A DNA stretch of 64,000 bases from a virus (lineage: Duplodnaviria > Caudoviricetes), in IMG/VR virus record IMGVR_UViG_3300030098_006079. One strand, 5' to 3'. A model generated the notes under the pieces. It was given only the letters and a program-made list of their open reading frames with translations. It did no database searches and had not been told where the DNA came from. Within the stretch, counting starts at the first letter, position 1; each line of letters opens with the position of its first letter. This document shows, piece after piece, positions 6,001-43,874 of this stretch. The translations under genes and the position numbers were made by a program.

Positions 6001-9000
6001 TGTTGCAATCGGTTCTCGTTCTTTATATTGTAACACAACAGCTTGTGGTAACACAGCAGTCGGTGGTTGTACTTTACACACTAATTCAACAGGAACTCAG
6101 AACACAGCAAGTGGTTATGTAGCTTTAGCAAAAAACACAACTGGCGCTAATAACACAGCTAGTGGTTATAGTGCCTTACAAAAAAATACAACTGGTCATT
6201 CAAATACTGCAGCTGGTTCATGCGCATTACTTAATAACACAACTGGTTGTTTTAATAATGCTTTCGGTAAGAGAGCCTTACGATCTAACACAACAGGTAA
6301 TCATAATCTTGCTATAGGTAATGATGCTCTTTATGGAAACACAACAGGTAATTATAATACTGCTAGTGGTTATTATGCATTAGGACTTGGAGCAGCTGGT
6401 TGTGAAAATGCCGCGTTTGGTTATAAAGCAGGTATGGGTGTTAATGGTGGTAAGCATAACACTGCTGTTGGTTACGAAGCCTTATTAGCTACAGGAACAA
6501 AATGTCTTAATACTGCTATTGGTCATAAGTCTCTGACATCCCTCACAACTGGCTGTAATAATACTGGTGTTGGTTATGGTTCATTATGTAATGCTACAAC
6601 TGCTTGTGATAATACTGCGCTAGGATATGGAGCGTTTGGTGCTCTTACAACTGGTTGTAGAAACGTAGCTGTCGGTCATGGTGCTGGTAATGCAACTACC
6701 ACCGGAGCGTGCAACTTCTTTGGTGGTCATGGTGCTGGGGAGGACAACACTACCGGTCATAGTAATGTAGCAATTGGCAGACAAGCTATGAATAAAAATA
6801 CAACTGCTGCTTATAATACAGTAGTTGGTGCATGTGCTCTTTTCTGTAATACGACAACTGGTATGGCGATGGAAGCATTTGGTTTTCGAGCACTACATAG
6901 TAACACAACAGGTTCTTGTAATACGGGTATAGGTTTTTGTGCTTTATATAGTAATACAAGCGGTTGTTTTAATACCGCGAGTGGTTACAGATCGCTAGCA
7001 ACTAACACTACAGGATGTAACAACGCGTCATATGGTTCATTTACTTTAGCGGCTAATGAATGTGGTTGTTATAATACAGCAATTGGCTTTAACTCGATGA
7101 AGTGTAATGCATCGGGTAATCAAAACACCGCGAGTGGCTCGTATTCTTTAATGTGTACCTCCTCTGGTAATTATAATACAGCTTTTGGTTATTCAGCTGC
7201 CCTTAACAATACTACTGGAGGATTTAATACTGCAGTAGGTAGAACGTCGCTGTATAATAATACAACAGGTATTGCTAACACAGCTATAGGTATGGAAGCA
7301 TTGTACTGTAATACAACTGCTTCTTATAATGTAGCAGTAGGTTATTGCACATTAAGGACTAATAGTACTGGAGCTAAGAATACTGCCGTTGGTCAAAGCG
7401 CATTAAAATCTAGTACAACTTCCAACTACAACGCCGCATTTGGTTATCAAACATTATTCTCTAATACAACTGGTATTCAAAATACTGCAAGTGGTTCATA
7501 TTCAATGTATGATAATACTACAGGTAGTTATAATGTTGCGTATGGTCTGAATTCATTAGCTAATAACATTACAGGTTGTGCTAATACAGCTATTGGTAAC
7601 AAGACTTTAGAGACTAATACTGCTGGTCATCGTAACGTTGCAATAGGTTGTCTCGCAGGTACGACTATGACTGGTAGTGATAATACTTTCATTGGTACTG
7701 AAGCAGGAAGATATACGACATCTAGTAAGTGTCATGTAGCGATAGGTCGTAACGCAATGAGACATAATTCGACTGGTTGTCGTAATAATGTTATTGGTGC
7801 TTGGGCTTTATATAGAAACACTACAGGAACAAATAATACTGCTAGCGGTTATTATTCTCTTAATTGTAATACAACTGGTAGTAATAATAATGCTGTAGGT
7901 TTGTTTGCTTTACAATGTAGCTGTACAGCTAGTAATAATAACGCAGTAGGTTATGCAGCTTTAATGAAAAATAACGCTGCAGATAATAATGCGTTTGGCT
8001 ACGGTGCTCTACAATATAATACAACTGGTACAAAGAACACCGCTATGGGTTGTCGAGTTATGAATACTAATACAGTTGGTTCTTGTAATACAGCAATGGG
8101 TAGTGAAGCTCTATTTTATAATGAATGTGGTATTTTTAATTCGGCGTTTGGTATAGCTGGTATGTCTTCAAATACAACAGGTTGTCATAATGTTGCAGTT
8201 GGTGGTTGTGCTTTAGCTGGTAACACTACAGCGAATGATAATGTTGCAGTTGGCTTTAAAACGTTATTAGTTTCAACAACTGGTTGTGAAAACGTTGCAA
8301 TTGGTCAGCGCACATTGTGTAGTAATACTACCGGATCAACAAACACAGCTGTCGGTCAACAAGCTCTCGTAAAAAATACTACAGCTCACGACAATACAGC
8401 TGTTGGTAAGAGTAGTATGCATGACAATACAACAGGTACTCTTAATACTGCAGTAGGTAGAAACTCTCTAAATTCTAATACAACAGCTTCTTATAACACA
8501 GCAATTGGTGGTTGTGCGTTATTGACTAATACTACTGGTGCTGCTAATACAGCAAATGGTTTTCGTGCACTAGCATCTAACACTACTGCTTCAGAGAATA
8601 CTGCAAGTGGTTATGCTGCTATGCAATTAAACACAACTGGTTGTGAAAATAGTGCATTTGGTAGAAAAGCAATGTGCTGCAATACAACAGGATTTAATAA
8701 TACAGCAGTTGGAGTAGTTGCGTTAGCTAATAACTCTACCGGTTGTTATAATACTGCAGTAGGTAATAGGGCGATGCTCCTTACTACGTCTAGCTTAAAT
8801 ACAGCAGTTGGTTATGTTGCTTTATGTAAAAATACAACTGGTAATAGTCAGGTCGCTGTTGGAGCATGTGCTTTACATACTAATACAACAGGAGGTGATA
8901 ATGTTGCAATTGGTGTAGAGTCGCTAAGATTTAACACCACCGGTGCTAGTAATGTAGTAGTTGGTAAAGATGCTGCACAATGTAATACGACGGCTAATAA

Positions 9001-11338
9001 TAATGTAGCAATAGGTTTGAAAGCTAATGCGCTTAATAAAACCGGATTCGGTAACGTAAGTGTAGGTGCCTGCGCAGCGTATAATTCCATATGTGGTAAA
9101 AACACTGCTATTGGTACAAGTGCTTTAGTTACTAATACAACCGGTGTTTGTAATGTAGTAGTTGGTTGGGATGCAGGTTATAGCACTACTACTGGTGGGT
9201 ACAACGTATTCATGGGCTCAAGAGCTGGTTTTAGTAATACTACAGGTGCTTCAAATACATTTATTGGTAAGGATTCTGGTTACTATACAACAACTGCTAG
9301 TCATAACACTGCTGTTGGTAATGGATCTCTTCTTGTTAACTCAACTGGTAGTTATAATACTGCAAGTGGTAGTTATGCTATGTATGCAACCACAACTGGG
9401 GCACAAAATACAGCGACGGGTTATGCAGCTATGTATTGTAATACAACTGGTAATTACAACGTCGCCGTCGGTCAGAGTTCCATGTACAAAAATGTATCCG
9501 GTAGTTGGAATACAGCGTTAGGTTTTGACAGCATGTCCTGCAACGTAGGTGGTTGTTATAACACAGCGTTAGGTAGAAAAGCAATGTGCTGCAATACATA
9601 TGGTAACTGTAACGCCGCAGGCGGTAATCATGCTTTAAGCTCTAACACAACTGGTTGTGAGAATGTAGCATTTGGTTATGCACCGATGTTGAACAATACA
9701 ACAGGTAAGTGGAATACTGCAATGGGTAGTTTTTCTTTATATAATAACACAACTGCTTGTTACAACACATCGGTTGGTAGACAATCTCTTTTTAGTACTA
9801 CAACAGGTAAACAAAATACAGCTATAGGTAATAGATCTTTATATAGTAACACAACAGCTAGTTATAATACAGGTCTTGGAGATCATGCTGGTTTTGGTAT
9901 TACAAGCGGTACAAGAAACACTACTGTAGGTCATGCGTCGATGCAATGTACATCTACTGGTGATGATAACGTTGCAGTAGGTCATTATTCCTTACATTGT
10001 AACACAACAGCTAACCAGAACGTTGCAGTCGGTGCTTGTACATTAATGAACAACTTAACAGGATCTAATAATACTGCAGTTGGTCATGGTGCTTTACATT
10101 CTAATACTACCGCGGCTAATAACGTTGCTGTAGGTCAATGCGCTTTGAGAAATAACTGCTGTAGTGGTGCAAAAGAAAATGTCGCGGTAGGTGCAACAGC
10201 TTTGCTTGCTAACTGTTCTGGTTGTAGAAATAATGCTCTTGGTACATCCGCTTTACAATGTAATACAAGCGGTGTTAGAAACCAAGCATTTGGTGGTTGG
10301 GCGTTACGTAGAAATACAACAGGTAGTAACAATACTGCTAGTGGTTATTATTCTCTTAATTGTAATACTGGTGGTAGTCAGAATACAGCTTATGGACATT
10401 ATACTCTTAGAAGTAATGTTACTGGAAATTGTAACACTGCGATGGGTTCATGTGCTGGTTGTGGTACGACAACAGGATCCGTGGTAGCAATAGGCGCTGC
10501 GGCTCTTAAAGACAATACAAGCGGAGTTAACTTGGCGGTCGGTTATTGTGCTGCTGGTAGAACCACCTCAGGTGGTCAGAATACTGTTGTGGGTACTCGC
10601 GCCATGGAATTGAATACAACTGGTGGTTGTAACACAGTAATGGGTGACCACGCCATGCATTATAATACAGGTAATTATAATACAGCCATGGGTCGTTTAG
10701 CTGGTTATTGTAGCATTGGTACAGAAAACGTTTATATAGGTTATAAAACTGCATGTATATCTACTAGCGCTAATTACAACACATTTGTTGGATCAGGAGC
10801 TGCTGCTAATAATACTGTTGGAGATTGTCATACTAGTCTTGGAGCAGGTACAGGACCAACTGCTTGTAACTTAACTAACACTATTTCAATTGGTTACAAT
10901 GTAACGGTTGCAGCTAACAACTATACATGCATTGGTAACAGTGCAACGGTCTGCTCAGTTGTCCCGAACATTTCTACTAACTGCTTTACGACTGGTGCGT
11001 TCATGGAAAGTAACCTCAGCTCCTTTGAGATAAAGGGCAATCCTACAGGAACGGTATTGATATGGAAAGATGGTAAAGCTATACCTTGTGAAGAAGAATA
11101 CGATGTAACAGTATTAGGTGTAGCTGCAGATAATAATGAATCTCCTATTATAATTGGAGCAGAGCCAGTGTTAGTAACTGGACCAATTAACGAAGGAGAC
11201 TTTATTGTTACATCTGACAAGAGAGGACATGGAAAGAAAGGATTTAGTAACAACTTGTTTGGTAAAGTTATTGCTCAGGCATTAGAGTCTGGAGATGGTG
11301 ATAGCTATACTATCAAGGCTATGATTAGGAAAATGTAA
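2..11338 (+). CDS. Giant tail fibre/adhesin-like protein (>3778 aa, 5'-truncated) of ~14-aa NTAVG-x-x-AL-x-x-NTTG beta-roll repeats with a C-terminal chaperone/Peptidase_G2-like domain
   Basis: The frame is open from nt 2 (VTNTTGCRNTASG...), so the track start at 203 is internal. Hundreds of YadA-head-like repeats; linker GGSGGTAGYVMCTDGSGNVGW near nt 4870-4930; C-terminus VLVTGPINEGDFIVTS...GKVIAQALE resembles tail-spike intramolecular chaperone ends. Confidence 0.8.
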   Translation, partial: VTNTTGCRNTASGNYSLNFNTTGFNNTAHGFQALLNNTTAKGNTSTGYYSLRANTTGCHNTASGYYALYSNTTAHYNTAVGACALFANTTADYNTAFGSQSLKANTTGGGNLALGYAALTNNTTASYNTAVGYAALFDNTTGGLNTAVGRQALENNTTGGKNTASGYFALGSNTTGSCNDAFGWNALLTNTTGGYNTAMGLWALKLNTTGCKNASVGSHSLQSNTEGCVNTAIGYQSLQANTTASYNTAVGSCALFDNTTGHSNTASGFYSLANNTTGCKNVAAGAWSLGKNTSGCSNTASGYTSLWENTTGYGNAAHGTKSLCKNTTGYSNIAVGSQALTTNTTGHSNTASGYFALKCNTTGGKNTAVGLCALHSNTTAEYNTGIGWRALLTNTTGCRNTATGMYALTNNSTGGCNTASGSYSLYANTCGSWNAAVGYKALKSNTTASFNTAVGTCSLHSNISGSRGTAVGYLAAVNNTCGHHTTAIGNQVLYSNTTGHSNTGSGSYALYKNTTGACNQAYGTLSLYHNTTGCLNSGFGRSTLCSNTTGSFNTAIGSCALPKNTTASDNVAVGYAALKVNIIGARNTAVGNCALCANVCGNGNAAFGHKAMRDTTSGIYNTASGAFSLHNNTTGSTNAAHGNLALYSNTTGANNTASGTKSLYDNTTGCLNTAIGYETLYENTTSNYNTAVGACSLYANTTGASLVAVGYNALKSSTCANCSTAVGHQALMDQTTGGGNTAVGQAAGENVTTGVANVIVGVKALCTATVAHYNTAIGYQAQRQTTTGHCNIAIGYNSLLNNTTACNNVGVGLDALYTGTTGSHNTAIGTRTLYANTTGSKNVALGFRTLCSNTEGLNNVALGAFVLDANTTGRCNTASGYAAMYNNTTGCRNTAVGDCALHDNTTGHDNVAIGRHALVNSTTAGANTAVGSCALLSNTTGASLVGIGYLALAANTTGIRNTALGVYSQRYTSTGNFNTSSGYMSLCSNSTGCNNTAFGDLALRTNTTASYATAVGGCALHSNTTGSYNTAVGFHAASSNTTAFGQTAIGYHALICNQTGCRNTALGVFALCCNVSGCDNTASGVYALYKNTGSNNSAYGFASLITNSSGEYNTAVGGCSLYANTTSCNNTGIGWMSLKSNTTGASNTGVGANTLQSNTTGGNNVAIGDCALLCNTTGGHNIGIGHGALCDATTAGGNVAIGGVAMENTTTGEYNIAQGKYALNANTTGCRNVGLGYAALIANTTASKNTAVGTCAMYDTSTGILNTAVGNETLVNNTTGSYSTAVGACALKTNTTSSYNDAFGMGALCTNNGGTHNVAVGGVALRFNTTGCRNTASGHYVMGKNTTGCMNVAYGYYALVCNTTANSNTAVGACSLYANTTGANNTASGYRSLANNTTGSDNTAVGWSAIKSNTTGSHNAALGYQSMQATTTGHSNAAIGKQTLYANTCGQRNTASGYRALFNNTSGSGSVALGACALCGNTTAGNNIAIGRGAMRNNTTGSINSASGYKSLYANTTGTHNAVHGYEAMCKNTTGGYNTAIGTCALFNNTGNDNVALGYAAGINNTSGCNNVFLGTNSCACDATLCNVVAIGKSAVATATNQIALGGSSHTVDLAACKLTIGGSGGTAGYVMCTDGSGNVGWTSIAGASGGVTCVATANTHVGDGSMSNVVALSAVHNTAYGYQSLKELTCGDYNTAIGSCSLGKTTTGLRNTASGYAALWKNTTGCENTASGIYALMNNTTASENTAVGNRALLTNSTGCANTAVGSSALRVNTTGLRHTAFGVEALKNNTTGSYNNAQGYGALFTNTTGQTNDAFGYAALYANTTGGCNAAFGHAPLAKNTTGNQNTAVGNLALCSNTTGNYSTAVGTKSLYTNTTGNNQAFGSFSLKKNTTGTLNNAFGYAAMEENTTGDCNTAMGHAVLNKNTTGCNNTALGVQALYCNTTGCNNTAIGRSALECHTSGKNNTAMGTWALYKTTTGQRNIAIGNSSLEKNTCGCWNVAIGSRSLYCNTTACGNTAVGGCTLHTNSTGTQNTASGYVALAKNTTGANNTASGYSALQKNTTGHSNTAAGSCALLNNTTGCFNNAFGKRALRSNTTGNHNLAIGNDALYGNTTGNYNTASGYYALGLGAAGCENAAFGYKAGMGVNGGKHNTAVGYEALLATGTKCLNTAIGHKSLTSLTTGCNNTGVGYGSLCNATTACDNTALGYGAFGALTTGCRNVAVGHGAGNATTTGACNFFGGHGAGEDNTTGHSNVAIGRQAMNKNTTAAYNTVVGACALFCNTTTGMAMEAFGFRALHSNTTGSCNTGIGFCALYSNTSGCFNTASGYRSLATNTTGCNNASYGSFTLAANECGCYNTAIGFNSMKCNASGNQNTASGSYSLMCTSSGNYNTAFGYSAALNNTTGGFNTAVGRTSLYNNTTGIANTAIGMEALYCNTTASYNVAVGYCTLRTNSTGAKNTAVGQSALKSSTTSNYNAAFGYQTLFSNTTGIQNTASGSYSMYDNTTGSYNVAYGLNSLANNITGCANTAIGNKTLETNTAGHRNVAIGCLAGTTMTGSDNTFIGTEAGRYTTSSKCHVAIGRNAMRHNSTGCRNNVIGAWALYRNTTGTNNTASGYYSLNCNTTGSNNNAVGLFALQCSCTASNNNAVGYAALMKNNAADNNAFGYGALQYNTTGTKNTAMGCRVMNTNTVGSCNTAMGSEALFYNECGIFNSAFGIAGMSSNTTGCHNVAVGGCALAGNTTANDNVAVGFKTLLVSTTGCENVAIGQRTLCSNTTGSTNTAVGQQALVKNTTAHDNTAVGKSSMHDNTTGTLNTAVGRNSLNSNTTASYNTAIGGCALLTNTTGAANTANGFRALASNTTASENTASGYAAMQLNTTGCENSAFGRKAMCCNTTGFNNTAVGVVALANNSTGCYNTAVGNRAMLLTTSSLNTAVGYVALCKNTTGNSQVAVGACALHTNTTGGDNVAIGVESLRFNTTGASNVVVGKDAAQCNTTANNNVAIGLKANALNKTGFGNVSVGACAAYNSICGKNTAIGTSALVTNTTGVCNVVVGWDAGYSTTTGGYNVFMGSRAGFSNTTGASNTFIGKDSGYYTTTASHNTAVGNGSLLVNSTGSYNTASGSYAMYATTTGAQNTATGYAAMYCNTTGNYNVAVGQSSMYKNVSGSWNTALGFDSMSCNVGGCYNTALGRKAMCCNTYGNCNAAGGNHALSSNTTGCENVAFGYAPMLNNTTGKWNTAMGSFSLYNNTTACYNTSVGRQSLFSTTTGKQNTAIGNRSLYSNTTASYNTGLGDHAGFGITSGTRNTTVGHASMQCTSTGDDNVAVGHYSLHCNTTANQNVAVGACTLMNNLTGSNNTAVGHGALHSNTTAANNVAVGQCALRNNCCSGAKENVAVGATALLANCSGCRNNALGTSALQCNTSGVRNQAFGGWALRRNTTGSNNTASGYYSLNCNTGGSQNTAYGHYTLRSNVTGNCNTAMGSCAGCGTTTGSVVAIGAAALKDNTSGVNLAVGYCAAGRTTSGGQNTVVGTRAMELNTTGGCNTVMGDHAMHYNTGNYNTAMGRLAGYCSIGTENVYIGYKTACISTSANYNTFVGSGAAANNTVGDCHTSLGAGTGPTACNLTNTISIGYNVTVAANNYTCIGNSATVCSVVPNISTNCFTTGAFMESNLSSFEIKGNPTGTVLIWKDGKAIPCEEEYDVTVLGVAADNNESPIIIGAEPVLVTGPINEGDFIVTSDKRGHGKKGFSNNLFGKVIAQALESGDGDSYTIKAMIRKM

Positions 11339-11421
11339 CTAGAGATCTCGAGAAAAATTTTTTTGCAAAACTCGGGGAGATTTTACATTAAGGGGTTTAA
11401 AAAATAAATAATTAAAGTTAT

Positions 11422-14400
11422 ATGGCGAAAATTGTTATAACTAACGGTACTATTCACTCAGATGATGATTTTAACTTAACATCTGGATCGGATGCGAATA
11501 CACGTAATAACTTCCGGATATGTAAGCAAAAAGATTCACATACCCGATTACGTTCATTATCATCCTTTAGAATAAAAACGCACGATTTACTCAATACTGG
11601 TAATGCAGAGATTTGTGGAAATCTTACTGTACATGGTACCTGTACTGTTCTTAATACTACCTTATGTTTAACAGATACAACTGCGACTGATAACTTTACT
11701 CTTGTATCTACTGATGCGGGTGCGTCTGCTGCTCCTGATTTTAAACTGTATAGAAACTCAGCCAGCCCAGCTAATAACGATTCTTTAGGCCATATTAAAT
11801 TTAGTGGTAAGGATGCTGCCGGCAATGAAACTGAGTATGCAAGTATAAAGGGTTGTATCCAATCTGTTGGTTCTGGTAGTGAGTGTGGCGCAATGTTAGG
11901 TAATGTTGTTATTAATGGGTCATCAACTGATATAATCAGAGTTGATTATGCAGGTTTGTGGACTCAAAACAACAAAAATTTGTATCTTAATGGAAGTGGT
12001 CAACTTCGAAATTACGGGGCTTGTTTAAGACTATCTACAGGAGGAGGAGACTATAAAATAACATTCGAGCCAGACTCTACTGTTAAAATGTGTTTACATG
12101 GAGGAGAGTTAACAGTTTGTAATAAAGTTTATACACCAATATTAAGAGCTACTGCTTGTACATTTTATGGTGCTTGTGGTTCTAGTAAATTATCCTCTGA
12201 TGGAGATAATATGCGCCATACTACACAGTATGGTTGTATTAATTTTGGTCCAGGTAATGCTAGTTATGCTCATATAACAACTGATAGAAGTCAATTTTAT
12301 TTTAATAAACAGCTTGTAGTCGATTCTGGCGTTGTAATGTCTTACAATGAAGATCTTAAACTTTCACGTGCTGGTAATAGTGTAAATGCTATTTATATAT
12401 GTAGCGCTCTAACAACTAGTTGTAATCCAACTAAACTATTTTCACAACAAGGACATACCATACCGCAGACTGGTAATGCTGTGTGTTGGTTGAAATTTGG
12501 ATCTTTATGTATACCGCAACACGGTTATAAGATGCGCATGAAAGTTGTTGCGAGTAATGGTTACGGTTCTAGTACAACTGACACTACTCAAGAAACAACA
12601 CTTTTATTTCAAACTGCAAACACCGGTGAAGCTAGTTCCGGTTCAAGTGTGTGTGCGTGTGTACATTCATTTATAGAAGGTAGTACGAAACGTGAATCAG
12701 ATGCTCCTTACTGTTTTATTGTACACGAAGTTAATTCCGCATTATTTGAAATATTTGGTAAATTTAACACTTATACAGGAACCGGTAGTTATTATACAAT
12801 AGAATCTGGACCTACTACATGTTGGATTGCATGTAACTCTTTTGTAGATCCTGATTCTTGTTCAGGTTCTTGTATAGTATCTATACCTAATAGAGGTACT
12901 ATATTTTGTACATCTTCCTCTACTACATGTATATGTGGTTCTGCTATTGTTCAGGGCGATATATGCATGAATAACAATTCGCGTGGTTATAAATTAGGTA
13001 CTGATACCGGTGGTTCTGGTAGTAGAGCTTTTCTAGCATTAGATTCTGACGGTTCTGATGGTATTGGAGCTGGTTCTGATTATTTCTTCGTTGCTAATGA
13101 TGGTTCTGATACCAGATTTTATAATGAAGGCCCGGAACATATAAGACTATGTGGTAGTTCGTGTGTTGCTTTTTGTAAACCGATAGCAGTTCACTGTTGC
13201 GCAAGAATAGCTACTATTAGAAACTTTACCAATACTACATACATGTGTCTTTGTGGTGGTTGTTGTTTGATAGGTGGTATACAGTTTAAAGACTGTCAAG
13301 GTTGTGACCGTGGCTGGGTGTATCATGATGGTGCTGCTAATTTTGGTTTATTATCATGTGCTGGATCTTGGGCTATTAAAATAACAGGTACTAGTAATAT
13401 ACAAAGCTCTTACACTCATTGTTTTTCCGGAAATATTGGTCTTGCTGGTGGATCTGCTAGTCGGGTGTGTATAGCTGGTAAGCGCGCTATAGAAGGTAAT
13501 AGTTGTATATTATCTTTAGGAGAAGATTGGGATTGTATATGTTTACGAGCTACTTGTACATATTCTACAGGAAACATATGTACTACTGCATGTTTACAAT
13601 CATCTGTGGTTTGTTCTACAGGTTGTGTAAAAACTCCGTTGATACAAGCGCAAGGCGGTGGAAGTTGTTTTGGTGCGCCTGCAGGTTGCGATGACTGGGA
13701 ATGTAGTCCTATTAGCATTAGAGAAAGAGGAGCAGTTTCTTCTAATCAAAGTCATGATTGTTATGCTCCTAACTTAAACTTTCATTGGGCTGGTAGAGTT
13801 TCAAACTCTTTGTATATGGCGGCGAACGGTCACTTAAAGTTTGGTTCTTATAATAGCAGCGGTTGTCCTGATGGTCCGAACGGTGTTTTCTGGGCTGGTA
13901 CTCTGTGTGGTAATACTTGTGTAAAATCTCCTATTGTTTGTGGTACAACATGTTTAGCTACTAATGTTATTTCTAGTAGTGGTAGTGCACCATCTGATTA
14001 CGGTGCATTGGCGATTGAAGGAGCCAAAGGAGGTTATGGTGGTGTTCATTTCTGTGGGTATACATTTATGGCAGCATCAGATTGCGGTGGCGGTGGTATT
14101 TATAACGATACTCACAATCAATGGGCTATATGGAATGGTGCAAATGCTGCTACTTACATTTATCATGCTGGTAATGCGAAATTACATACTATCACCAATG
14201 GTGTACGAGTATGCAAAGAATCAAACGCCGGGTATATAGACATTTGCCCATCAGGTGGTTGGGGTCATCTTATAACTAGTAACAATTGTTTCTACATGAA
14301 CGTACCATTGATGGTCAATGGAGGTAGTATTGGTTCTTATGACGAAGATTTAACGCTACAAAGAGGTTATTCCCTTACTGCTGCTGAAAGTATAAAGATT

Positions 14401-25560: not shown

Positions 25561-25987
25561 TATGGAAGTAGAAACGTTAAATAAAACATGGTTCGTAGAT
25601 GTAGATGGAACAATCCTACATCATCACACAAATGATAGCTTGGATAAACTTATCGAGGAGTATGGAGAAGATAGTTTTAAATATGAACAGCCTATTGTTA
25701 GTGCTGTAGAGTTTTTTCAAGATCTACCGGAAACAGATATCATTGTTATTGCAACTGCTCGCGAAAAGAGACACACCGATCATACATTAAATGTATTAGA
25801 ATATATTGGTATGCCTTTTGATCAATGGATATTCGAGTTAGGTGCTGGTCCTAGAGTTGTGGTAAACGACATCAAACCACCGGGCGCGGCTGGCAATAAA
25901 AGAGCTCTCAAGACAGCTTACGGAATTAATCTAGATCGAGATGGAGGAATTACATCAAAGCATCGTGCGATTGCAGCAAAAATTTAA
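25553..25987 (+). CDS. HAD-superfamily phosphatase
   Basis: Motif I WFVDVDGT, motif II IATAR, C-terminal [11 protein letters not shown]. Confidence 0.75.
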
Positions 25988-25988
25988 A

Positions 25989-27170
25989 ATGGTAACAAAA
26001 ATAGGAACCCCGTTTACGAAGACTTCTACTTTAGTAATGCTATGTGGAAGTGGAGAGTTAGGTAAAGAAGTTGTAATTGAATTGCAGCGTTTAGGTGCTG
26101 AAGTAGTTGCAGTAGACTCATATGAGAACGCTCCAGCGCATCAAGTAGCAGATCATTCGGCTGTTATTGATATGCTCGACGAAAAACAATTGAGGGATGT
26201 CATCGTTAAATACAATCCTAATATTATTGTTCCAGAGATTGAAGCTATTGCTACAAATGTCCTGAAAGAAGCAGAAGAATGTGATCGTACAGTCATACCA
26301 AATGCTAGAGCAGTTCAACTTACTATGAACCGAGAAGGTATTCGGTCTCTTGTAGCTGAAGAGCTAGGTTTAAAGACTTCTAATTATAAATTCGCTTCTA
26401 CTAAAGAAGAGTTCACCGCAGCTGTTGAAGAAATCTCTTTACCTTGTGTAGTTAAGCCTATTATGTCTTCTAGCGGTAAAGGACAGAGTGTAATTAGATC
26501 GTTTGACGATGTACATACTGCCTGGGAATACGCTCAAACTGGAGGTCGAGCTGGAGCTGGTCGAGTTATTGTAGAAGAGTTTATTGAATTTGATTATGAA
26601 ATTACTTTACTCACAGTAAAGCATAACGACGGTATCTCTTTTTGTGAACCTATCGGGCATGAGCAAGTAGATGGAGATTATATTAAATCCTGGCAACCTC
26701 ATCCAATGTCTGGTACCGCGAGACAAAAAGCTGAAGATATTGCTAGAAGCGTAGTAAGCAATCTTGGTGGGTATGGTGTGTTTGGAGTAGAGTTATTTGT
26801 AAAGGGTGATGAAGTTTATTTTTCTGAAGTATCTCCACGCCCACATGATACTGGTTTAGTGACTATGATCTCTCAAGATCTATCAGAATTTGCTCTACAT
26901 GCAAGAGCTATATTAGGTTTACCAATCCCTAATATTCTACAGCTAGGTTTTGGAGCATCTCATGTTATTAAGCTAGAAGGTAAGAGTGATAATGTAACAT
27001 TCTCTGGCTTCGACGGTTTAAAAGAAACAGGTACTCAAGTGAGACTGTTTGGAAAACCTGGAGTAAATGGTTCGCGTCGTATGGGTGTTGCTTTAGCAAT
27101 TGATAATGGTTTAGGATATGCAAAAGAAAAAGCCGAACGAGTCGCACTCAGCGTTAAGTCCGAATTGTAA
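25989..27170 (+). CDS. purT: Formate-dependent phosphoribosylglycinamide formyltransferase (ATP-grasp)
   Basis: IGTP...[65 protein letters not shown]; start assigned to ATG 25989. Confidence 0.95.
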
Positions 27171-27833: not shown

Positions 27834-27920
27834 GCCAGTGTGGTGAAATTGGCAAACACAACAGACTTAAAATCTGTCGCCCTTTTGGGCTTGTCGGTTC
27901 GAGTCCGACCACTGGTACCA
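27834..27920 (+). tRNA. tRNA-Leu(UAA)
   Basis: Acceptor gccagtg/cactggt, anticodon arm acaga-CTTAAAA-tctgt, long variable arm, GTTCGAGTC T-loop, encoded CCA. Confidence 0.95.
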
Positions 27921-29370: not shown

Positions 29371-29446
29371 GCCAGTTTAGCTCAGTTGGTAGAGCACTCG
29401 ATTTGTAATCGAACGGTCGTCAGTTCGAATCTGACAACTGGCTCCA
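29371..29446 (+). tRNA. tRNA-Thr(UGU)
   Basis: Acceptor gccagtt/aactggc, D-arm TAGCTCAGTTGGTAGAGC, anticodon loop TTTGTAA, GTTCGAAT, encoded CCA. Confidence 0.95.
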
Positions 29447-38606: not shown

Positions 38607-38633
38607 AAAGCCTCCTAACGGAGGCTTTTTTTT
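38607..38633. terminator. Bidirectional intrinsic terminator
   Basis: aaaagcctcc-taac-ggaggctttt between convergent genes. Confidence 0.85.
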
Positions 38634-38977
38634 CCCCAAAATTTATGCTCGTAGTCTGGGGTATTTTCTTCTATCAAAGCATCTCTCCATTCTGTCTTAG
38701 AGGCATCAGATAATAATATGTGATTGGTGGTGTTAGTATCAGGAGATGGTTCCCATCTCCTTGCTAGCTCATGCAATTGAGCTTCTTCGTAACTTAACAT
38801 ATGAGTCAAGTTAGCAAAGCGTTTAAGTAATGAACGTTTAGGAGGAGGATTAATACCTCTTTCCACTTTACGCCACATTCTCTTTTCTACTCCAAGTATC
38901 TTACTAAACTTAGTTAAGTCTTTGAAGTATTTTAATCTTATTTCTTTTATGTAAGTATTAAATTTCATTTTTACCAA
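38615..38977 (-). CDS. XRE-type helix-turn-helix protein
   Basis: IKEIRLK...TKFSKILGVEKRMWRKVERGINPPP...LKRFA. Confidence 0.6.
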   Translation of the reverse strand: MVKMKFNTYIKEIRLKYFKDLTKFSKILGVEKRMWRKVERGINPPPKRSLLKRFANLTHMLSYEEAQLHELARRWEPSPDTNTTNHILLSDASKTEWRDALIEENTPDYEHKFWGKKSLR

Positions 38978-39177: not shown

Positions 39178-39423
39178 TTATTCTTCCTTTTTTATTTTTA
39201 TTGGTACATGTTGTTGAGTTGACCATGCGTGATGTAGACTATCATACGCTTCATCATAGTTCCATCGCGGACACTTAAAAGACATTGTTCTATGCTTAGG
39301 ATAGTCTTCTTGCCATACCCATGTTCCTGAACACCCGCATAGAGTTATCACAATACAGCTATACAGTAAAGTAAAAACAAACCTACGAAAGGCGCTACGG
39401 CCACAATTAAATATTCTTTCCAT
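39178..39423 (-). CDS. Putative lipoprotein
   Basis: Hydrophobic segment ending LCGC. Confidence 0.45.
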   Translation of the reverse strand: MERIFNCGRSAFRRFVFTLLYSCIVITLCGCSGTWVWQEDYPKHRTMSFKCPRWNYDEAYDSLHHAWSTQQHVPIKIKKEE

Positions 39424-39653
39424 TGTTTTTTAAAATCGTATCTACATATATTATAGACGCAAATTATATGCTCTTTAAAAGTTAGCTTCTTGAGTAATCG
39501 CGCCATTACCTAACTCCTGACCCAACTCTTATTGGGAAGTATTGTTTTTTAACCTCTAAGTCACCTCTACCTTCGCAAGATGAAACTGCTATTGCTATCA
39601 TAAAAACTGTTAGCAATACCGTTATAAAAAATTCTTTTCTTTTTTGACTCATT

Positions 39654-41231
39654 CTACTCATCAGTTTTAAACTCCGCTTTTTTTGTTCCTCGCCAATGAG
39701 GAAATTCTCTTCTACCAAAATTGTTACCATATGCGGTCCACATATGAACAGTAGTTCCGTGTTTAACTATAACAGGTCCCCAATCATCAAACTGTAAGCC
39801 AGGTATATCCATTTCACATACATACTGGTGTACATCGTTTGATATTAATAAGTGATCATTATCCCCTGCATCCATACAACGTTGAGCCATATTAATACCT
39901 GTACCGCTTACGTTAGGGTTATCATTTATATCTTTTACAGGGACTACTGGACCAGAATACAATCCATTCCTTAAACCAATACTAGAATGTTTATAAGTCA
40001 TACGCCCTACATCGACCATACACTTAAATGCAGCATTAACGCTATTAAAAAATACTAACGCCATACCATCTCCAGTAGGTAATATAATTAATTTACCTTG
40101 TCTGTCTGCTTGTTGATATCCTTGTGTACCTTTAACACAATCAATTAACTCATCTGTAACTTTCTTTTGCTCAGCTGTAGTCTTTTTAGAATAACCTACT
40201 ATATCCATAAAGTAGGTATGAGCTCGACATGGAGAGTCGTATTGAATTCCTTCTCCTTTTAACTTAAATGGATCTTGTCCCCACTTCCATTTTATAACTC
40301 TTTGTTTCTTTTTATCTTCTTCTTCTTTTTGTATTTTCTCAGCTGCTTCTCTTCTTGCTTTAGCTTGTTCGCCTGCTATTCTATTCTTTACAGCTTCTCT
40401 TTTCTCTTTTTTATCTTTTGATTCAAATAGTTTACCTAACAGCGTATCAGGTTCTTGTAATGCTTTTCTATCTTCATCTTGTTCTCTACGTTCTTTTCTT
40501 ATGCGATCTAAAGCTTCGTCGGCAGCTTTATTATCAAAAACTTGATTATTGACTCTTGGTTTGTATTTAGGATTATCCCTACTAGGGTGTTTACATGCTC
40601 CTCTTTTAACTAAGTAGTCAAGCATTACATTACTATTATTAGCATTAGCTATTTCCCAGGCATTATAATGGAATTGATCATTAGGATTGTAAGTTGATCC
40701 GTTTATGTTCGCTTTAGCATCTAATAAAATTTTAACTATATTAATATTGTTAATATCTACTGCGTAGTGTAAGGCCATCCACCCTCTATGGTCTCTTGCA
40801 TTAATTTTTAAACTATCATCTTCTAATAGACCTTCTATTTCATCTATATCTTCTAACTGTACGCATTGATGTAAAGTAAGTTCTTTATTATAAAACATAC
40901 CCCCTGCGTCTCTTAATGAACCTACAATTTTATGACGATTAGGTCCATCAGCTACATCCATAGCGGTAACTATAGGACATTCTTTGTCCTCCATTATCGC
41001 TAAGTTCCAACTACTCTGTCTAACACTTACTGGTTTACTTGGAGTGTTTGGATCTACTCCAGCTTCAAGAATAACGCTTACTATTTTTACTTTACTTTTA
41101 TTAGACGCGTAGTGAAGTGGAGTCCATCCGTTATCTTCATCTGTAGAATAAAATAAATTAGGAGTTTCTAAAGCCCTTTTTATACATCTTAAGTTCCCCG
41201 TCGCAGCTAATTGATGCAAACTCTCATCCAT
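39654..41231 (-). CDS. Ankyrin-repeat + coiled-coil + class III nucleotide cyclase fusion
   Basis: Ankyrins GWTPLHYAS and GWMALHYAV; cyclase FMDIVGYS, PTGDGMALVF, LRNGLYSGPV, GINMAQRCMD. Confidence 0.85.
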   Translation of the reverse strand: MDESLHQLAATGNLRCIKRALETPNLFYSTDEDNGWTPLHYASNKSKVKIVSVILEAGVDPNTPSKPVSVRQSSWNLAIMEDKECPIVTAMDVADGPNRHKIVGSLRDAGGMFYNKELTLHQCVQLEDIDEIEGLLEDDSLKINARDHRGWMALHYAVDINNINIVKILLDAKANINGSTYNPNDQFHYNAWEIANANNSNVMLDYLVKRGACKHPSRDNPKYKPRVNNQVFDNKAADEALDRIRKERREQDEDRKALQEPDTLLGKLFESKDKKEKREAVKNRIAGEQAKARREAAEKIQKEEEDKKKQRVIKWKWGQDPFKLKGEGIQYDSPCRAHTYFMDIVGYSKKTTAEQKKVTDELIDCVKGTQGYQQADRQGKLIILPTGDGMALVFFNSVNAAFKCMVDVGRMTYKHSSIGLRNGLYSGPVVPVKDINDNPNVSGTGINMAQRCMDAGDNDHLLISNDVHQYVCEMDIPGLQFDDWGPVIVKHGTTVHMWTAYGNNFGRREFPHWRGTKKAEFKTDE

Positions 41232-41239
41232 ATAATTAT

Positions 41240-41524
41240 TTATTCAGCATAGTAGAAGGGAATACTAGCCGAAGCGTGACATTCATAACACCTATCATAA
41301 GTTTTTACCAATAATTGTATATCATCTGCATGAATATTAACTGAATTATATTCAGGCATAGCCTTTAGTATGTCAACTTGTCTTTTATATGTTTGACAGG
41401 CAGCTATTTGAGCTCTTCTCTTAGCGTTACTGTAGGATTGAACGGCGAGAGCTGTCAATAGCGCTATAATTGTTATAGTGAGTAATAATTCTAGTAGAGT
41501 ATATCCTTTATTCCCATGCGTCAT
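41240..41524 (-). CDS. Small type IV pilin/pseudopilin-like protein
   Basis: Prepilin site KG-YTLLELLLTITIIALL; C-terminal CYECH. Confidence 0.8.
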   Translation of the reverse strand: MTHGNKGYTLLELLLTITIIALLTALAVQSYSNAKRRAQIAACQTYKRQVDILKAMPEYNSVNIHADDIQLLVKTYDRCYECHASASIPFYYAE

Positions 41525-42488
41525 CCCAATACCATCCCCATGAGTCGAAAGTTTTTCCTGATATATCTCTTAAATTCCACTCTCTTACATATCGTCCAAT
41601 ACCTCCACCCATCCAACCTTTCCATGGATGATTGTTAGGATAAGGGACAATAGCTCTTTCTTGTAACCACTGCAAATCTCTATTACCCGGGCTTACTACT
41701 TGTTCTAGACTAGTGTTAGGGTTCTTTACATGTTCTGGTATGTTTTTAGTGAGCTCTTCTAACCATCTTCTAAACTCAACATGCCCATCAGTAAATGATA
41801 CCACTGATCCATTTATATGATATATACCAGGCCAATCCATAGAAAATATAGACTCCTTATCTTTTAGTACAGGAACTACTCTAAAGTTACCTGCGTTAAT
41901 TGATTCTGCTGGCATCTCAATAAATGTAAACATGTTACTCGGGTCAGTTATATCTGCATATTTGTGATGTACTTTATATTGATTGTCATATAAAAAAGGC
42001 CATCCTGACCATCCACCTACAAATATATTCATACTGTATGATCTTGCTCGTTGTACAGTAGTAACTTTATTTGTACCAGAAGAGGGAGGAGGGACCATTC
42101 CCCATCTTCCACCATCCCAAGTTACAGTAGACTTATCTTGAGGACAACGATAGATACCTTTACCGGCATACTGGAACAAAGGAGACCAAATTAAAGACCT
42201 TTCCGTTTGAGCCCATTTGCTCCACTTACTACCACCTGACATACTATCAGCTACCCAGGCTCTTGGTGCAGTAGGTTCGTTGTGCCAAGCAGATGCGTAT
42301 GCTATTTTATCATCAGAGTCTAATGCTAGCTGACTCATAGCATAGTTTAGTTGCTTATGATTAGAAATACAAAGAGCTTTAGATGCAGACTGCTTTGACT
42401 TAGATAAAGCAGGTAATAATAAGGCAGCAAGTATAGCTATTATAGCTATTACTACAAGTAGTTCTATTAAAGAAAAGGCTTTTTTCAT
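41508..42488 (-). CDS. Prepilin N-methylation + H-X9-DG domain protein (PVC-type pseudopilin)
   Basis: KA-FSLIELLVVIAIIAILAALLLPAL; CPQD; HINGSVVSFTDGHVE = H-X9-DG. Confidence 0.88.
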   Translation of the reverse strand: MKKAFSLIELLVVIAIIAILAALLLPALSKSKQSASKALCISNHKQLNYAMSQLALDSDDKIAYASAWHNEPTAPRAWVADSMSGGSKWSKWAQTERSLIWSPLFQYAGKGIYRCPQDKSTVTWDGGRWGMVPPPSSGTNKVTTVQRARSYSMNIFVGGWSGWPFLYDNQYKVHHKYADITDPSNMFTFIEMPAESINAGNFRVVPVLKDKESIFSMDWPGIYHINGSVVSFTDGHVEFRRWLEELTKNIPEHVKNPNTSLEQVVSPGNRDLQWLQERAIVPYPNNHPWKGWMGGGIGRYVREWNLRDISGKTFDSWGWYWDDAWE

Positions 42489-42513: not shown

Positions 42514-42753
42514 TTACTTACTCAAATAAGATGATAATAAAGAAGTTGCGAAACCAATCACAGAAGCTCCTATAGCACCATACATAATTATTTTAGTACT
42601 TAGTGTAGCTAATTGCACTTCTATTTTCTTTTGGTTCTTTTGAAGCTCTTCGATATCTGAGTTTAGACGACTTAACTCACTGAGTACCAAACGTCTCCAC
42701 TCAGCCCAGGAACCGTTCTCTAATTTATTTGGATCATTACTCATGCGGGACAA
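42514..42753 (-). CDS. Small coiled-coil protein with C-terminal TM helix
   Basis: Heptad pattern followed by IIMYGAIGASVIGFATSLL. Confidence 0.55.
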   Translation of the reverse strand: MSRMSNDPNKLENGSWAEWRRLVLSELSRLNSDIEELQKNQKKIEVQLATLSTKIIMYGAIGASVIGFATSLLSSYLSK

Positions 42754-43078
42754 GGGTTACTTTTTTATGTATTAATTTGCCATTTCTGTTTAGATCTCTT
42801 ATCTTTACTGTGTGAGTGGCACCATTGATATCTACTGTGACTGTCTTTCTAGACCATTTTGAAATATCTACACCAATAATACTTTTTAGACCCTTGTTGT
42901 GGATTTCTGTACTATCCACTTCAAATGACTGTTGAAAGAATTCATTGCACCATTTAATTCTGCCTGCTTCGGATACCAGCACGATGGAATAATCCGCTTC
43001 AGTAACATAATTAATAAAGTCGTTTTCATGCAGCTCTAGCTGATGTGTCAACTTTTCTAATTTCTTCAAATTAGTCAC
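42737..43078 (-). CDS. Stand-alone PAS-domain protein
   Basis: SIVLVSEAGRIKWCNEFF...EIHNKGLKSII; TAAATA box upstream on the minus strand. Confidence 0.6.
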   Translation of the reverse strand: MTNLKKLEKLTHQLELHENDFINYVTEADYSIVLVSEAGRIKWCNEFFQQSFEVDSTEIHNKGLKSIIGVDISKWSRKTVTVDINGATHTVKIRDLNRNGKLIHKKVTLVPHE

Positions 43079-43112: not shown

Positions 43113-43874
43113 ATGAAATTTGATAAGCCAAGAATTTTGGTCATTGGTGATAAGTGCGCTGATCAGTACGTTTATGGTAATGTGACGCGTCTTTGCCCGG
43201 ATGTTCCTGCGCCTGTCTTCAAACCTGTTAAGACTGTCCAGACAGATGGTATGGCTGGAAACGTAGCCCGACAGTTAAGAGAGTGGGACTGTTATGTTGA
43301 TACTAAGTTTAACGAGGAATTTATTTGTAAGAGAAAATACATCGATGAGAAGACTAATCATACTATCATTAGAGTAGATACTGAAAAACCTGTTAGTCGG
43401 ATACAATCTGATAATTTAAATGAATTATTACATAATGCTAACGAAAAATGGGATGGTATTATTGTATCAGATTATGGTAAAGGATTCTTACATCAACAAG
43501 ATATTAGAAAGATTTGTGAGGCACACCCATTAGTGTTTGTTGATACTAAAAAGACTTTAGATCATAATTTTAAGTCATGTGCTTTTATTAAGATAAACGA
43601 ACCCGAATGGAACGCTACAAAAGATAATGTATCATCTGAAGTAAAAAATAAAGTTATTGTGACGCTAGGGGGTAAAGGTTGTATGTATAATGGTAAGACA
43701 TATCCTGTTAACCCTGTAGACGTTTTCGACTTATCTGGAGCTGGTGATACCTTTATGTGCGGATTAGTCACATCTTATATTCACGAACAAGATATTGATA
43801 CAGCTTTATTTTGCGCTAATGATTGCGCTGTTCGTGTAGTCCAGAAAAAAGGTGTTGCAACAATCGAGATTTGA
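43113..43874 (+). CDS. HldE/RfaE domain I-like PfkB sugar (heptose-7-phosphate) kinase
   Basis: ILVIGD..DQYVYG...RLCPDVPAPV, GMAGNVA, SDYGKG, VDTK, DLSGAGDTF. Confidence 0.85.
   Translation: MKFDKPRILVIGDKCADQYVYGNVTRLCPDVPAPVFKPVKTVQTDGMAGNVARQLREWDCYVDTKFNEEFICKRKYIDEKTNHTIIRVDTEKPVSRIQSDNLNELLHNANEKWDGIIVSDYGKGFLHQQDIRKICEAHPLVFVDTKKTLDHNFKSCAFIKINEPEWNATKDNVSSEVKNKVIVTLGGKGCMYNGKTYPVNPVDVFDLSGAGDTFMCGLVTSYIHEQDIDTALFCANDCAVRVVQKKGVATIEI

Follow-up and report, generated by a model that had tools for sequence, protein, structure and literature searches.

An ankyrin-class III cyclase fusion carried by a large marine phage: catalytic residues, kinship and expected product

What would a tailed phage make with a nucleotide cyclase joined to ankyrin repeats, and on whose receptors would the product act? 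The question is raised by a gene in a 64,000-nt stretch of Caudoviricetes DNA (one strand of IMG/VR record IMGVR_UViG_3300030098_006079; the whole of this stretch is called the window below). The open reading frame (ORF) at 39654-41231 on the (-) strand is open and, when translated, codes for a protein of 525 amino acids (aa), P0001, with an ankyrin region at the N-terminus and a cyclase-homology domain at the C-terminus. The reading that we favour, with slightly better than even confidence, is that P0001 is a catalytically competent cytoplasmic class III cyclase of a large marine phage with a verrucomicrobial host, and that its product, a purine cyclic nucleotide and likely cAMP, acts on the host's receptors for cyclic nucleotide monophosphates (cNMP).

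Domain layout, catalytic residues and selection

P0001 consists of three parts, each supported by its own evidence:

39654..41231, (-) strand: ankyrin-cyclase gene P0001, 525 aa (ORF and translation; orthologues; ratio of nonsynonymous to synonymous substitution rates, dN/dS)
40575..41231, (-) strand: ankyrin-repeat region, residues 1-219, two repeat clusters (Pfam; AlphaFold2, AF2)
40230..40574, (-) strand: charged helical linker, residues 220-334 (AF2 secondary structure, conservation)
39687..40229, (-) strand: class III cyclase-homology domain, residues 335-515 (PDB profile matches, AF2, fold matches)

The ankyrin repeats score over the Pfam cut-offs (Ank_2, 1.2e-17, 64.7 bits against a cut-off of 27.3; Ank, 3.8e-15, 55.6 bits against 21.1), fall into two clusters at residues 5-64 and 120-213 within a Pfam-matched span of 5-215, and are modelled as helical repeats with a predicted local distance difference test score (pLDDT) mostly of 80-97. 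The linker is predicted to contain two helices (234-258 and 272-308, pLDDT 70-80), with values below 50 at 220-233 and 307-321; residues 309-334 have low model confidence, yet are conserved, including a WKWGxDPF stretch that follows the helices. The model of the full-length protein has pLDDT of 82 and a predicted template modelling score (pTM) of 0.43. No signal peptide was found in the sequence or the AF2 model of P0001, the N-terminus being the first ankyrin helix, and the protein is most likely cytoplasmic.

The C-terminal 200 residues match the solved cyclase domain of Rv1900c directly, at E 6e-4. When the profile of alignment A1 (58 sequences, the cyclase domain of P0001 and its relatives) was run against PDB, the matches included 3mr7 (5e-14), Rv1900c (1ybt, 4e-11) and Ma1120 (7e-10). 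The AF2 model of the cyclase domain has pLDDT of 93, and Foldseek places Rv1900c at the top, followed by other adenylate and guanylate cyclase structures, with probability 1.0; the fold search gave 189 PDB matches at E<=0.001, and all of the best 50 of these 189 are class III adenylate or guanylate cyclases. By these profile and model comparisons, the predicted class III fold, with its beta-alpha-beta-beta-alpha-beta core, is far beyond a chance resemblance.

Rv1900c (LipJ; PDB 1ybt/1ybu), an enzyme of class IIIc, is the best structural match (Foldseek E 4e-11, TM-score 0.71-0.80) and the second-best sequence match (4e-11), and a compact fold is common to both proteins. Like P0001, it lacks Lys at the first of the two base-selecting positions, with Asn342 opposite Leu384 of the phage protein; unlike P0001, it keeps Asp at the second (D395, phage Asn440), has His in place of Asn447, and is fused to an alpha/beta-hydrolase domain rather than to ankyrin repeats, with identity of about 18-22%. 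The core of Mycobacterium avium Ma1120 (PDB 4wp8 and others) aligns at E 7e-10 and has the metal-binding Asp residues in common with P0001, but its base-selecting pair is Lys101/Asp157, as opposed to Leu/Asn in the phage enzyme.

The residues on which the chemistry would depend are located as follows:

40203..40205, (-) strand: Asp343, first metal-binding Asp, in FMDIVGYS (codon check; invariant in 96/96 representatives)
40068..40082, (-) strand: Leu384-Pro-Thr-Gly-Asp388, in which Leu takes the place of the base-selecting Lys and Asp is the second to bind metal (codons, alignment, 96/96)
39969..39971, (-) strand: Arg421, phosphate-binding Arg of the RxGxxxG strand (invariant in alignments A1 and A2 and in the 96 representatives)
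39879..39914, (-) strand: Asn440, at the base-selecting Asp position, and Asn447 and Arg451, the transition-state pair, in NVSGTGINMAQR (codons, alignment)
39762..39764, (-) strand: Lys490 in VKHG, likely the gamma-phosphate Lys (invariant in the subfamily alignment and in the phage family)

The key codons were read directly in the window sequence, which confirmed D343 (FMDIVGYS), L384, T386 and D388 (ILPTGDG), R421 and K490 (VKHG), as well as N440, N447 and R451 in NPNVSGTGINMAQR. In the profile-PDB alignments, D343 and D388 align with the metal-binding Asp residues of solved cyclases, and N447 with the transition-state Asn, which is His (H402) in Rv1900c. The phosphate-binding role of R421 and the likely gamma-phosphate role of K490 are assigned by position, and we presume them from what is generally known of class III cyclases. 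L384 aligns with K101 of Ma1120 (KSQGDG) and N342 of Rv1900c, and N440 with D157 and D395 of the same proteins; K101 and D157 are the residues that specify ATP in Ma1120 (PMC4215837). The base-selecting pair of P0001 is therefore changed from Lys to Leu384 and from Asp to Asn440, with neither Glu nor Cys at these positions. This pair marks substrate classes, not class III membership, and Rv1900c deviates from the canon as well. Both halves of what the initial annotation had read in the sequence, namely intact metal and transition-state residues next to a base pocket without the canonical adenine or guanine pair, are borne out by the codons and alignments, and so is its description of the gene as a phage-borne fusion of ankyrin repeats with a class III cyclase, by phage context, Pfam, fold and profile matches.

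Conservation is strict. In 96 cluster representatives of the phage family, D343, L384, D388, R421, N440, N447 and K490 are invariant and R451 is found in 95; across the 58 subfamily members of A1, the catalytic residues are invariant or nearly so. The catalytic set of P0001 is intact. When P0001 is compared with the orthologue L002, dN/dS is 0.071 overall, and 0.042, 0.070 and 0.097 in the cyclase, ankyrin and linker parts, respectively (dS about 0.9). Against L003, dN is 0.36 in the ankyrin part and 0.04 in the cyclase domain, and in more distant pairs dN of the ankyrin part exceeds that of the cyclase domain by a factor of three to ten. Purifying selection on the phage gene is strong, and it constrains the cyclase domain most.

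Genuine ankyrin repeats that evolve faster than the cyclase domain are what an adapting binding surface would leave behind, and the base-contacting pair is non-canonical; both would suit a pseudo-enzyme or scaffold that binds a nucleotide or a partner without turnover while the ankyrin domain sequesters a host protein. Pseudo-enzymes, on the other hand, usually lose metal or transition-state residues, whereas here the chemistry residues are kept across the 96 representatives and the cyclase domain, at dN/dS of 0.042, is constrained more than any other part, which makes a loss of turnover improbable. The intact residues and the purifying selection are consistent with an active cyclase of unproven product, as the initial annotation had it.

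The aliphatic/Asn subfamily and the expected product

In a search space of 1.84 billion cluster representatives, the cyclase domain has 3,492 relatives, 294 of them at E < 1e-30 and 40-46% identity, with the best match at about 1e-39. Their architectures include a cyclase with TolB-like and TPR domains, a Ser/Thr kinase with cyclase and TPR domains, and cyclase domains in tandem. The base-selecting pair is Leu/Asn in 112 of the 136 top relatives that were parsed and Ile/Asn in another 18. Arg is seen at the Lys-equivalent position in just two of the 136 (P0152 and P0163), both of which have Asp, not Asn, as the partner. Because the only two relatives with Arg also carry the partner Asp, positions 384 and 440 appear to act together, and the covariation suggests that they work as a pair at the base pocket. 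The Arg-Asp covariation of P0152 and P0163 is also a candidate natural specificity switch. A further relative, P0110 (438 aa), has two tandem cyclase domains of this same subfamily followed by a membrane segment, an arrangement that recalls pseudo-heterodimeric cyclases.

Cellular members with the xPTGDG and N-V-A-G motifs are 40-46% identical to P0001 in the cyclase domain and have the same invariant motifs, the aliphatic/Asn pair included; they differ in their partner domains and form the sister group to all ankyrin-cyclases, with a support of 100 in the Shimodaira-Hasegawa-like approximate likelihood ratio test (SH-aLRT). One named member is from Blastocatellia (Acidobacteriota). Among 151 genomes sampled from each phylum, those with a subfamily member at E<=1e-25 numbered three in Verrucomicrobiota (one carrying nine paralogues) and two in Bacteroidota; either count includes the genome that served as the search centre, which in Verrucomicrobiota had been picked for carrying the gene. 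The distribution is patchy. PDB profile searches found no solved structure from the subfamily, and a literature search found the motif PTGDGM in no paper. From this survey of relatives, the aliphatic/Asn pair is the norm of a large, mostly cellular subfamily and not a phage invention; the unusual specificity residues are normal for such a protein, and we see in them no sign of new chemistry.

The product that we expect is a purine cyclic nucleotide, most likely cAMP, made with relaxed selectivity and perhaps with a cGMP side activity, because Asn could recognise adenine by its N6 amino group as well as guanine by its O6, with Leu offering packing only. Neither Rv1900c (Asn/Asp) nor Rv0386 (Gln/Asn) of M. 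tuberculosis has the Lys/Asp pair, and yet both are adenylate cyclases with guanylate side activity. A relaxed purine cyclase, rather than a dedicated pyrimidine cyclase, would likewise be expected since Leu/Asn is standard in a cellular signalling subfamily.

The initial annotation had hinted at Pycsar-like chemistry, that is, a pyrimidine or otherwise non-canonical cyclase (making cyclic CMP or cyclic UMP) by which the phage could interfere with Pycsar or with CBASS (antiphage signalling based on cyclic oligonucleotides) immunity. Both the Lys/Asp and the Glu/Cys pairs are indeed absent, the product of the subfamily is not known, and a class III-like fold has been retuned to pyrimidines in PycC and to cGMP in Pucsar; these enzymes resemble P0001 in a distant class III-type fold, two-metal chemistry and pockets other than Lys/Asp. 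Yet the PADLOC models of PycC gave no match at E<=10 with the whole of P0001 or with residues 300-525, and PycC chains were absent from the PDB profile search at E<=10 and from the best 50 of the 189 fold matches. The pyrimidine-selecting residues published for PycC enzymes are Y50/D94/R97, F100/R142/Q144 and F60/K104/F109 (PMC11224242). These sets are bulky or charged, unlike F341/L384/T386/N440 of P0001, which has Leu four residues before the second metal-binding Asp and Thr two before it. The Leu/Asn pair occurs in hundreds of cellular TPR and kinase signalling proteins, a physiological rather than an immune-type context; a phage, moreover, would be harmed by making the signal that triggers abortive infection, and no gene for an effector of PycTM/PycTIR type or of CNBD-TIR type (cyclic nucleotide-binding domain with TIR) was found beside the cyclase or in four related, incomplete phage records. 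With hidden Markov models, profiles and fold ranking all silent on PycC, a pocket of another kind and no effector partner in the phage records, the proposal of pyrimidine chemistry and of interference with immunity is not supported, and we consider it quite unlikely.

The phage, its host and the kinship of the gene

The phage family of ankyrin-cyclases is diverse and is present in large marine and freshwater phages. Some 100 clusters (at 90% identity) with a cyclase domain 60-98% identical to that of P0001 were recovered by word-indexed search; they come from marine metagenomes, on contigs of up to 162 kb. Orthologues of P0001 (62-97% identity) are found on 10 IMG/VR contigs that also hold large terminase, PhoH, a sigma-like protein and a nuclease, and near-identical DNA is present in marine metagenomes from at least six studies. 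Contigs from two marine metatranscriptome libraries, 90-97% alike, cover parts of the cyclase ORF; DNA carry-over is possible, and we take them as a weak hint of expression. The same contigs leave uncovered parts of the (-) island in which the gene lies, including its pilin-like genes; these vary among relatives, and the contigs cannot show absence. A tblastn search with the whole protein gave no match in INPHARED (50,697 GenBank phage records).

The window is phage DNA of about 37% GC, coding, among others, for a DnaB-like helicase, a thymidylate synthase, a DUF932 protein, a PurT-like ATP-grasp enzyme and two tRNAs, and P0001 is a phage-borne gene. A 119-kb IMG/VR contig (L001, in G001) is syntenic with the window, with 97% protein identity; since this contig is estimated to be 59% complete, the phage is, by estimate, roughly 200 kb long. 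The T4 hallmarks Gp23 and Portal_T4 have no match in four related IMG/VR records, which, being 22-59% complete, are uninformative on phage type.

The host is most likely a member of Verrucomicrobiota, because a 326-aa pilin-like protein encoded next to the cyclase has matches in 105 of the 151 Verrucomicrobiota genomes, often in many copies, and in none of the 151 Bacteroidota genomes. Its best matches (1e-33, near full length) are in a genome that carries a chromosomal ankyrin-cyclase, and it has weak matches to the 'Verru_Chthon cassette' and H-X9-DG models. Two metagenome-assembled genomes (MAGs) with related sequences are labelled Flavobacteriales, and we rejected a host from this order: one of the bins has five Gp23 genes on five contigs, and the pilin-like gene is found in 0/151 Bacteroidota genomes. 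That bin, G005 (Flavobacteriales bacterium NAT55, 2.0 Mb, which includes L011), is largely a bin of T4-like phage contigs, and its label is unfit for host inference because the five T4 capsid genes are separate and lie on five contigs.

A maximum-likelihood tree built on the cyclase domain unites all ankyrin-cyclases in a single clade (SH-aLRT 100), apart from other architectures. Within it, the marine phage family (support 98) is sister to a clade (95) made of genes from Verrucomicrobiota MAGs and of P0124, a phage gene. The Verrucomicrobiota gene P0120 (594 aa) is chromosomal, being located among ligA, histidine biosynthesis, HDOD protein and flagellar genes, with identical synteny in two samples. 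The gene for P0124/P0278 (593 aa) is found on a T4-like phage contig, with gp13/gp15-like genes on one side and Gp23 on the other and with portal and prohead protease genes near; the protein shares 70% identity with P0120 along its full length, and T4-likeness is established only for this P0278 contig. P0120 and P0124/P0278 share with P0001 the ankyrin-linker-cyclase order, the motifs and the C-terminal tail, and belong to one clade with it; they differ in having three ankyrin clusters instead of two, with identity of 32-33% over the full length and 44-46% in the cyclase domain. The cellular ankyrin-cyclases are GC-rich (0.61) and are flanked by ligA and flagellar genes.

Two contigs deserve a separate mention. 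L034 (a 54.7-kb contig of JGI 3300045062, 37% GC) represents a second, T4-like phage lineage, with Gp23, Portal_T4, gp13 and prohead protease; at 10001-11782 it codes for a 593-aa ankyrin-cyclase in the structural gene block, beside a Mom-like gene, and this protein is 70% identical to that of a chromosomal gene from 64%-GC Verrucomicrobiota. L014 (3.7 kb, 34.5% GC), labelled Gammaproteobacteria bacterium CCP3-SC1AL1, has an ankyrin-cyclase of the P0124 type and is probably phage DNA within a bacterial assembly, because its GC content resembles that of L034.

The GC content of ankyrin-cyclase genes follows that of their own genomes (0.35 in the phage, whose genome has 0.37, and 0.61 in the bacterium), and since each copy has the composition of its own genome, the exchange between phage and cell was not very recent. 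In the free tree, the T4-like phage copy groups with the cellular clade; a tree constrained to unite all phage copies is not rejected (approximately unbiased test, p-AU 0.54), so that one transfer is enough, and phage-to-cell transfer is as possible as cell-to-phage.

The same architecture in chromosomal Verrucomicrobiota genes, and the location of the phage gene in a variable (-) island with host-like cargo such as pilin-like genes, would both fit a housekeeping cyclase acquired recently from the host and carried as a passenger, with no phage-specific role. The phage side of the tree, on the contrary, is deep, with about 100 clusters and internal branches as long as 0.37 substitutions per site. 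Cellular ankyrin-cyclases, by contrast, are rare and form a shallow clade: among the 151 Verrucomicrobiota genomes, the ankyrin-fused form was found only in the genome chosen for carrying it. A deep phage side and a shallow, rare cellular clade argue against a housekeeping gene picked up by chance, as do the strong purifying selection, the match between the GC of the gene (0.35) and that of the phage (0.37), and a direction of transfer that may equally well have been from phage to cell; we find the passenger explanation unlikely. The caveat of the initial annotation that the gene may be host-derived stands in so far as the xPTGDG/Asn pattern is the rule in a cellular subfamily and the nearest cellular copies of the same architecture are in Verrucomicrobiota chromosomes; its remark that the variant is common in Verrucomicrobiota was overstated, with 3 of the 151 genomes positive.

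Ankyrin proteins of bacteria and of 'ankyphages' often target eukaryotic cells, raised cAMP blocks phagocytosis, and there are cyclase toxins that raise cAMP in phagocytes. P0001 could, by the same token, be a eukaryote-directed effector that shields infected cells from grazers by raising cAMP and blocking phagocytosis, and the best NCBIfam look-alikes of its ankyrin part are, far below cut-off, the Legionella Dot/Icm Ank effectors. These ankyrin matches are generic repeat matches, the protein has no signal peptide, no secretion system is seen in the window, and the same architecture is present in chromosomes of free-living Verrucomicrobiota, beside housekeeping and flagellar genes. A function outside the host bacterium thus seems very improbable.

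Operon, proposed action in the host and significance

A tightly packed (-) operon runs from 43078 to 38615, with the cyclase as its fifth gene. The neighbours of the cyclase, and some more distant features of the window, are:

42514..43078, (-) strand: first two operon genes, coding for a 113-aa weak PAS-like protein and a 79-aa membrane protein (both conserved in L001)
41240..42488, (-) strand: pair of pilin-like genes of prepilin type (N-methyl), immediately upstream of the cyclase (Pfam N_methyl, NCBIfam TIGR02532)
39506..39661, (-) strand: small lipoprotein-like gene, family F4 (lipobox-like AVSSC; candidate starts)
39178..39423, (-) strand: small lipoprotein-like gene, 81 aa, family F3 (recurrence downstream of the cyclase)
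38615..38977, (-) strand: XRE/Cro-type helix-turn-helix (HTH) protein, 120 aa, family F2, at the operon end (ESM Atlas look-alikes)
43113-43874, (+) strand: PfkB-family kinase, divergent from the (-) operon (resembles HldE/RfaE domain I)
2-11338, (+) strand: giant ORF of at least 3,778 aa, running off the window start (PHROG repeats)
25941-27170, (+) strand: PurT-like ATP-grasp enzyme (ATP-grasp 6e-59, PurT_C 1e-19)
27834-27920 and 29371-29446: tRNA genes, Leu(taa) and Thr(tgt)

The start of the cyclase is 8 nt past the stop of the small prepilin-type gene, as read in the junction sequence. Because the 326-aa pilin-like gene is missing from the otherwise 97%-identical L001, the pilin-like genes are not obligate partners of the cyclase; they are variable host-like cargo and a useful host marker. 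The 113-aa protein matches PAS_GdpP at E 0.0064, below cut-off. Downstream, the likely start of F4 is 39661 or 39652, which makes it overlap or directly adjoin the stop of the cyclase; in 7 of 12 loci, F4 comes after the cyclase in the same orientation. F3 is downstream of the cyclase on the same strand in 8/12 and has no match in Pfam, NCBIfam or PHROG. F2 is near the cyclase in 8/12 loci, too, and its look-alikes in ESM Atlas are viral HTH clusters of cro/C1 type (0.98). Superinfection exclusion is one idea for the F3, F4 and HTH genes. The T4 late promoter TATAAATA is not enriched (17 sites, with 12 expected), and none was found before the (-) operon.

The divergent kinase matches heptose-7-phosphate kinase (HldE/RfaE domain I) at 1.6e-36, below the NCBIfam cut-off, and may be an auxiliary metabolic gene for a cell-envelope sugar. 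The giant ORF contains 28-41 repeated stretches that match PHROG families of virion structural and tail-spike proteins; after it come two ORFs (1,241 and 1,595 aa) without a family match.

Phage cyclases as such are not new, because they are preceded by Pelagiphage genes and by cyclase-fold proteins in BFVD, which lists a few of giant-virus origin and two of uncultured tailed phages. Uncultivated marine Pelagiphages are reported to carry adenylate cyclase genes inside curli (type VIII secretion system, T8SS) gene clusters (PMC9599517). They offer a precedent for a phage cyclase beside genes for a cell-surface structure, as P0001 follows pilin-like genes; they differ in host and gene cluster, and no ankyrin repeats are mentioned for them (PMC9599517). 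A literature search found no paper on ankyrin repeats and a cyclase in phages. We found no earlier description of the fusion with ankyrin repeats, of how widespread it is among large phages, of its link to Verrucomicrobiota, or of the aliphatic/Asn subfamily taken as a unit.

In the mechanism that we infer, which covers dimer, activity, product, ankyrin partner and physiological effect alike, two C-terminal domains would pair head to tail into the homodimer usual for such enzymes, probably also by means of the helical linker. D343 and D388 would bind two metals, R421 and K490 would hold the triphosphate, and N447 and R451 would stabilise the transition state on the way to the 3',5'-cyclic nucleotide. 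The ankyrin repeats and the helical linker may serve as a protein-binding and dimerising module, through which a bacterial partner could tether or regulate the enzyme; the initial annotation had put forward a cyclase that may be gated by ankyrin sensing. In the infected cell, the cNMP-binding proteins of the host itself would respond to the product, and the cell would thereby be re-programmed. Host receptors would be ready for a cyclic nucleotide made by the phage, because each of four Verrucomicrobiota genomes with cyclases of the subfamily has 7-12 cNMP-binding domains (PF00027).

Could the signal be read by the phage instead? If the aliphatic/Asn subfamily made a product other than cAMP or cGMP, such as a cyclic pyrimidine or mixed products, large marine and freshwater phages might use it as a private signal for the takeover of Verrucomicrobiota cells or for a superinfection block, with their small co-transcribed proteins, or a host receptor captured by the ankyrin repeats, as readers. 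The lipoprotein-like F3 and F4 proteins are too small for cNMP-binding domains, and we regard a private signal as a long shot.

Several points weigh against a cAMP-producing cyclase that acts on verrucomicrobial receptors. The PF00211 model scores under its cut-off on the window protein (E 0.024, 14.7 against 21.9 bits). Several subfamily relatives pass it, at 22-30 bits, and because they do so and the subfamily profile matches solved cyclases at 5e-14, the domain is a divergent class III member and not a non-member. The orientation of the ankyrin and cyclase parts relative to each other is predicted without confidence, as the low pTM indicates. Leu cannot hydrogen-bond a base, so selection must differ from that in textbook enzymes, and cAMP is a prior, not a result; the subfamily has no member of known product. 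The host is assigned by one neighbouring gene family and by gene kinship, without a cultured system. Finally, no cNMP-binding domain (PF00027) was found in the four related, incomplete phage records, so that any receptor must be the host's.

On the whole, the phage probably makes a cyclic-nucleotide signal in its host, to judge from the intact and conserved active site, and the present evidence points to neither new chemistry nor an anti-defence role. Second-messenger enzymes carried by phages are little explored. If P0001 is active, phages make a cyclic nucleotide in a poorly studied and ecologically important phylum that is rich in cNMP receptors, and the ankyrin-cyclase would be an entry to second-messenger manipulation in this host group. 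The phage enzyme also flags a class III subfamily with thousands of cellular members and an aliphatic/Asn pair; its small soluble domain may be a cheap biochemical entry point to this large unannotated group of cyclases.

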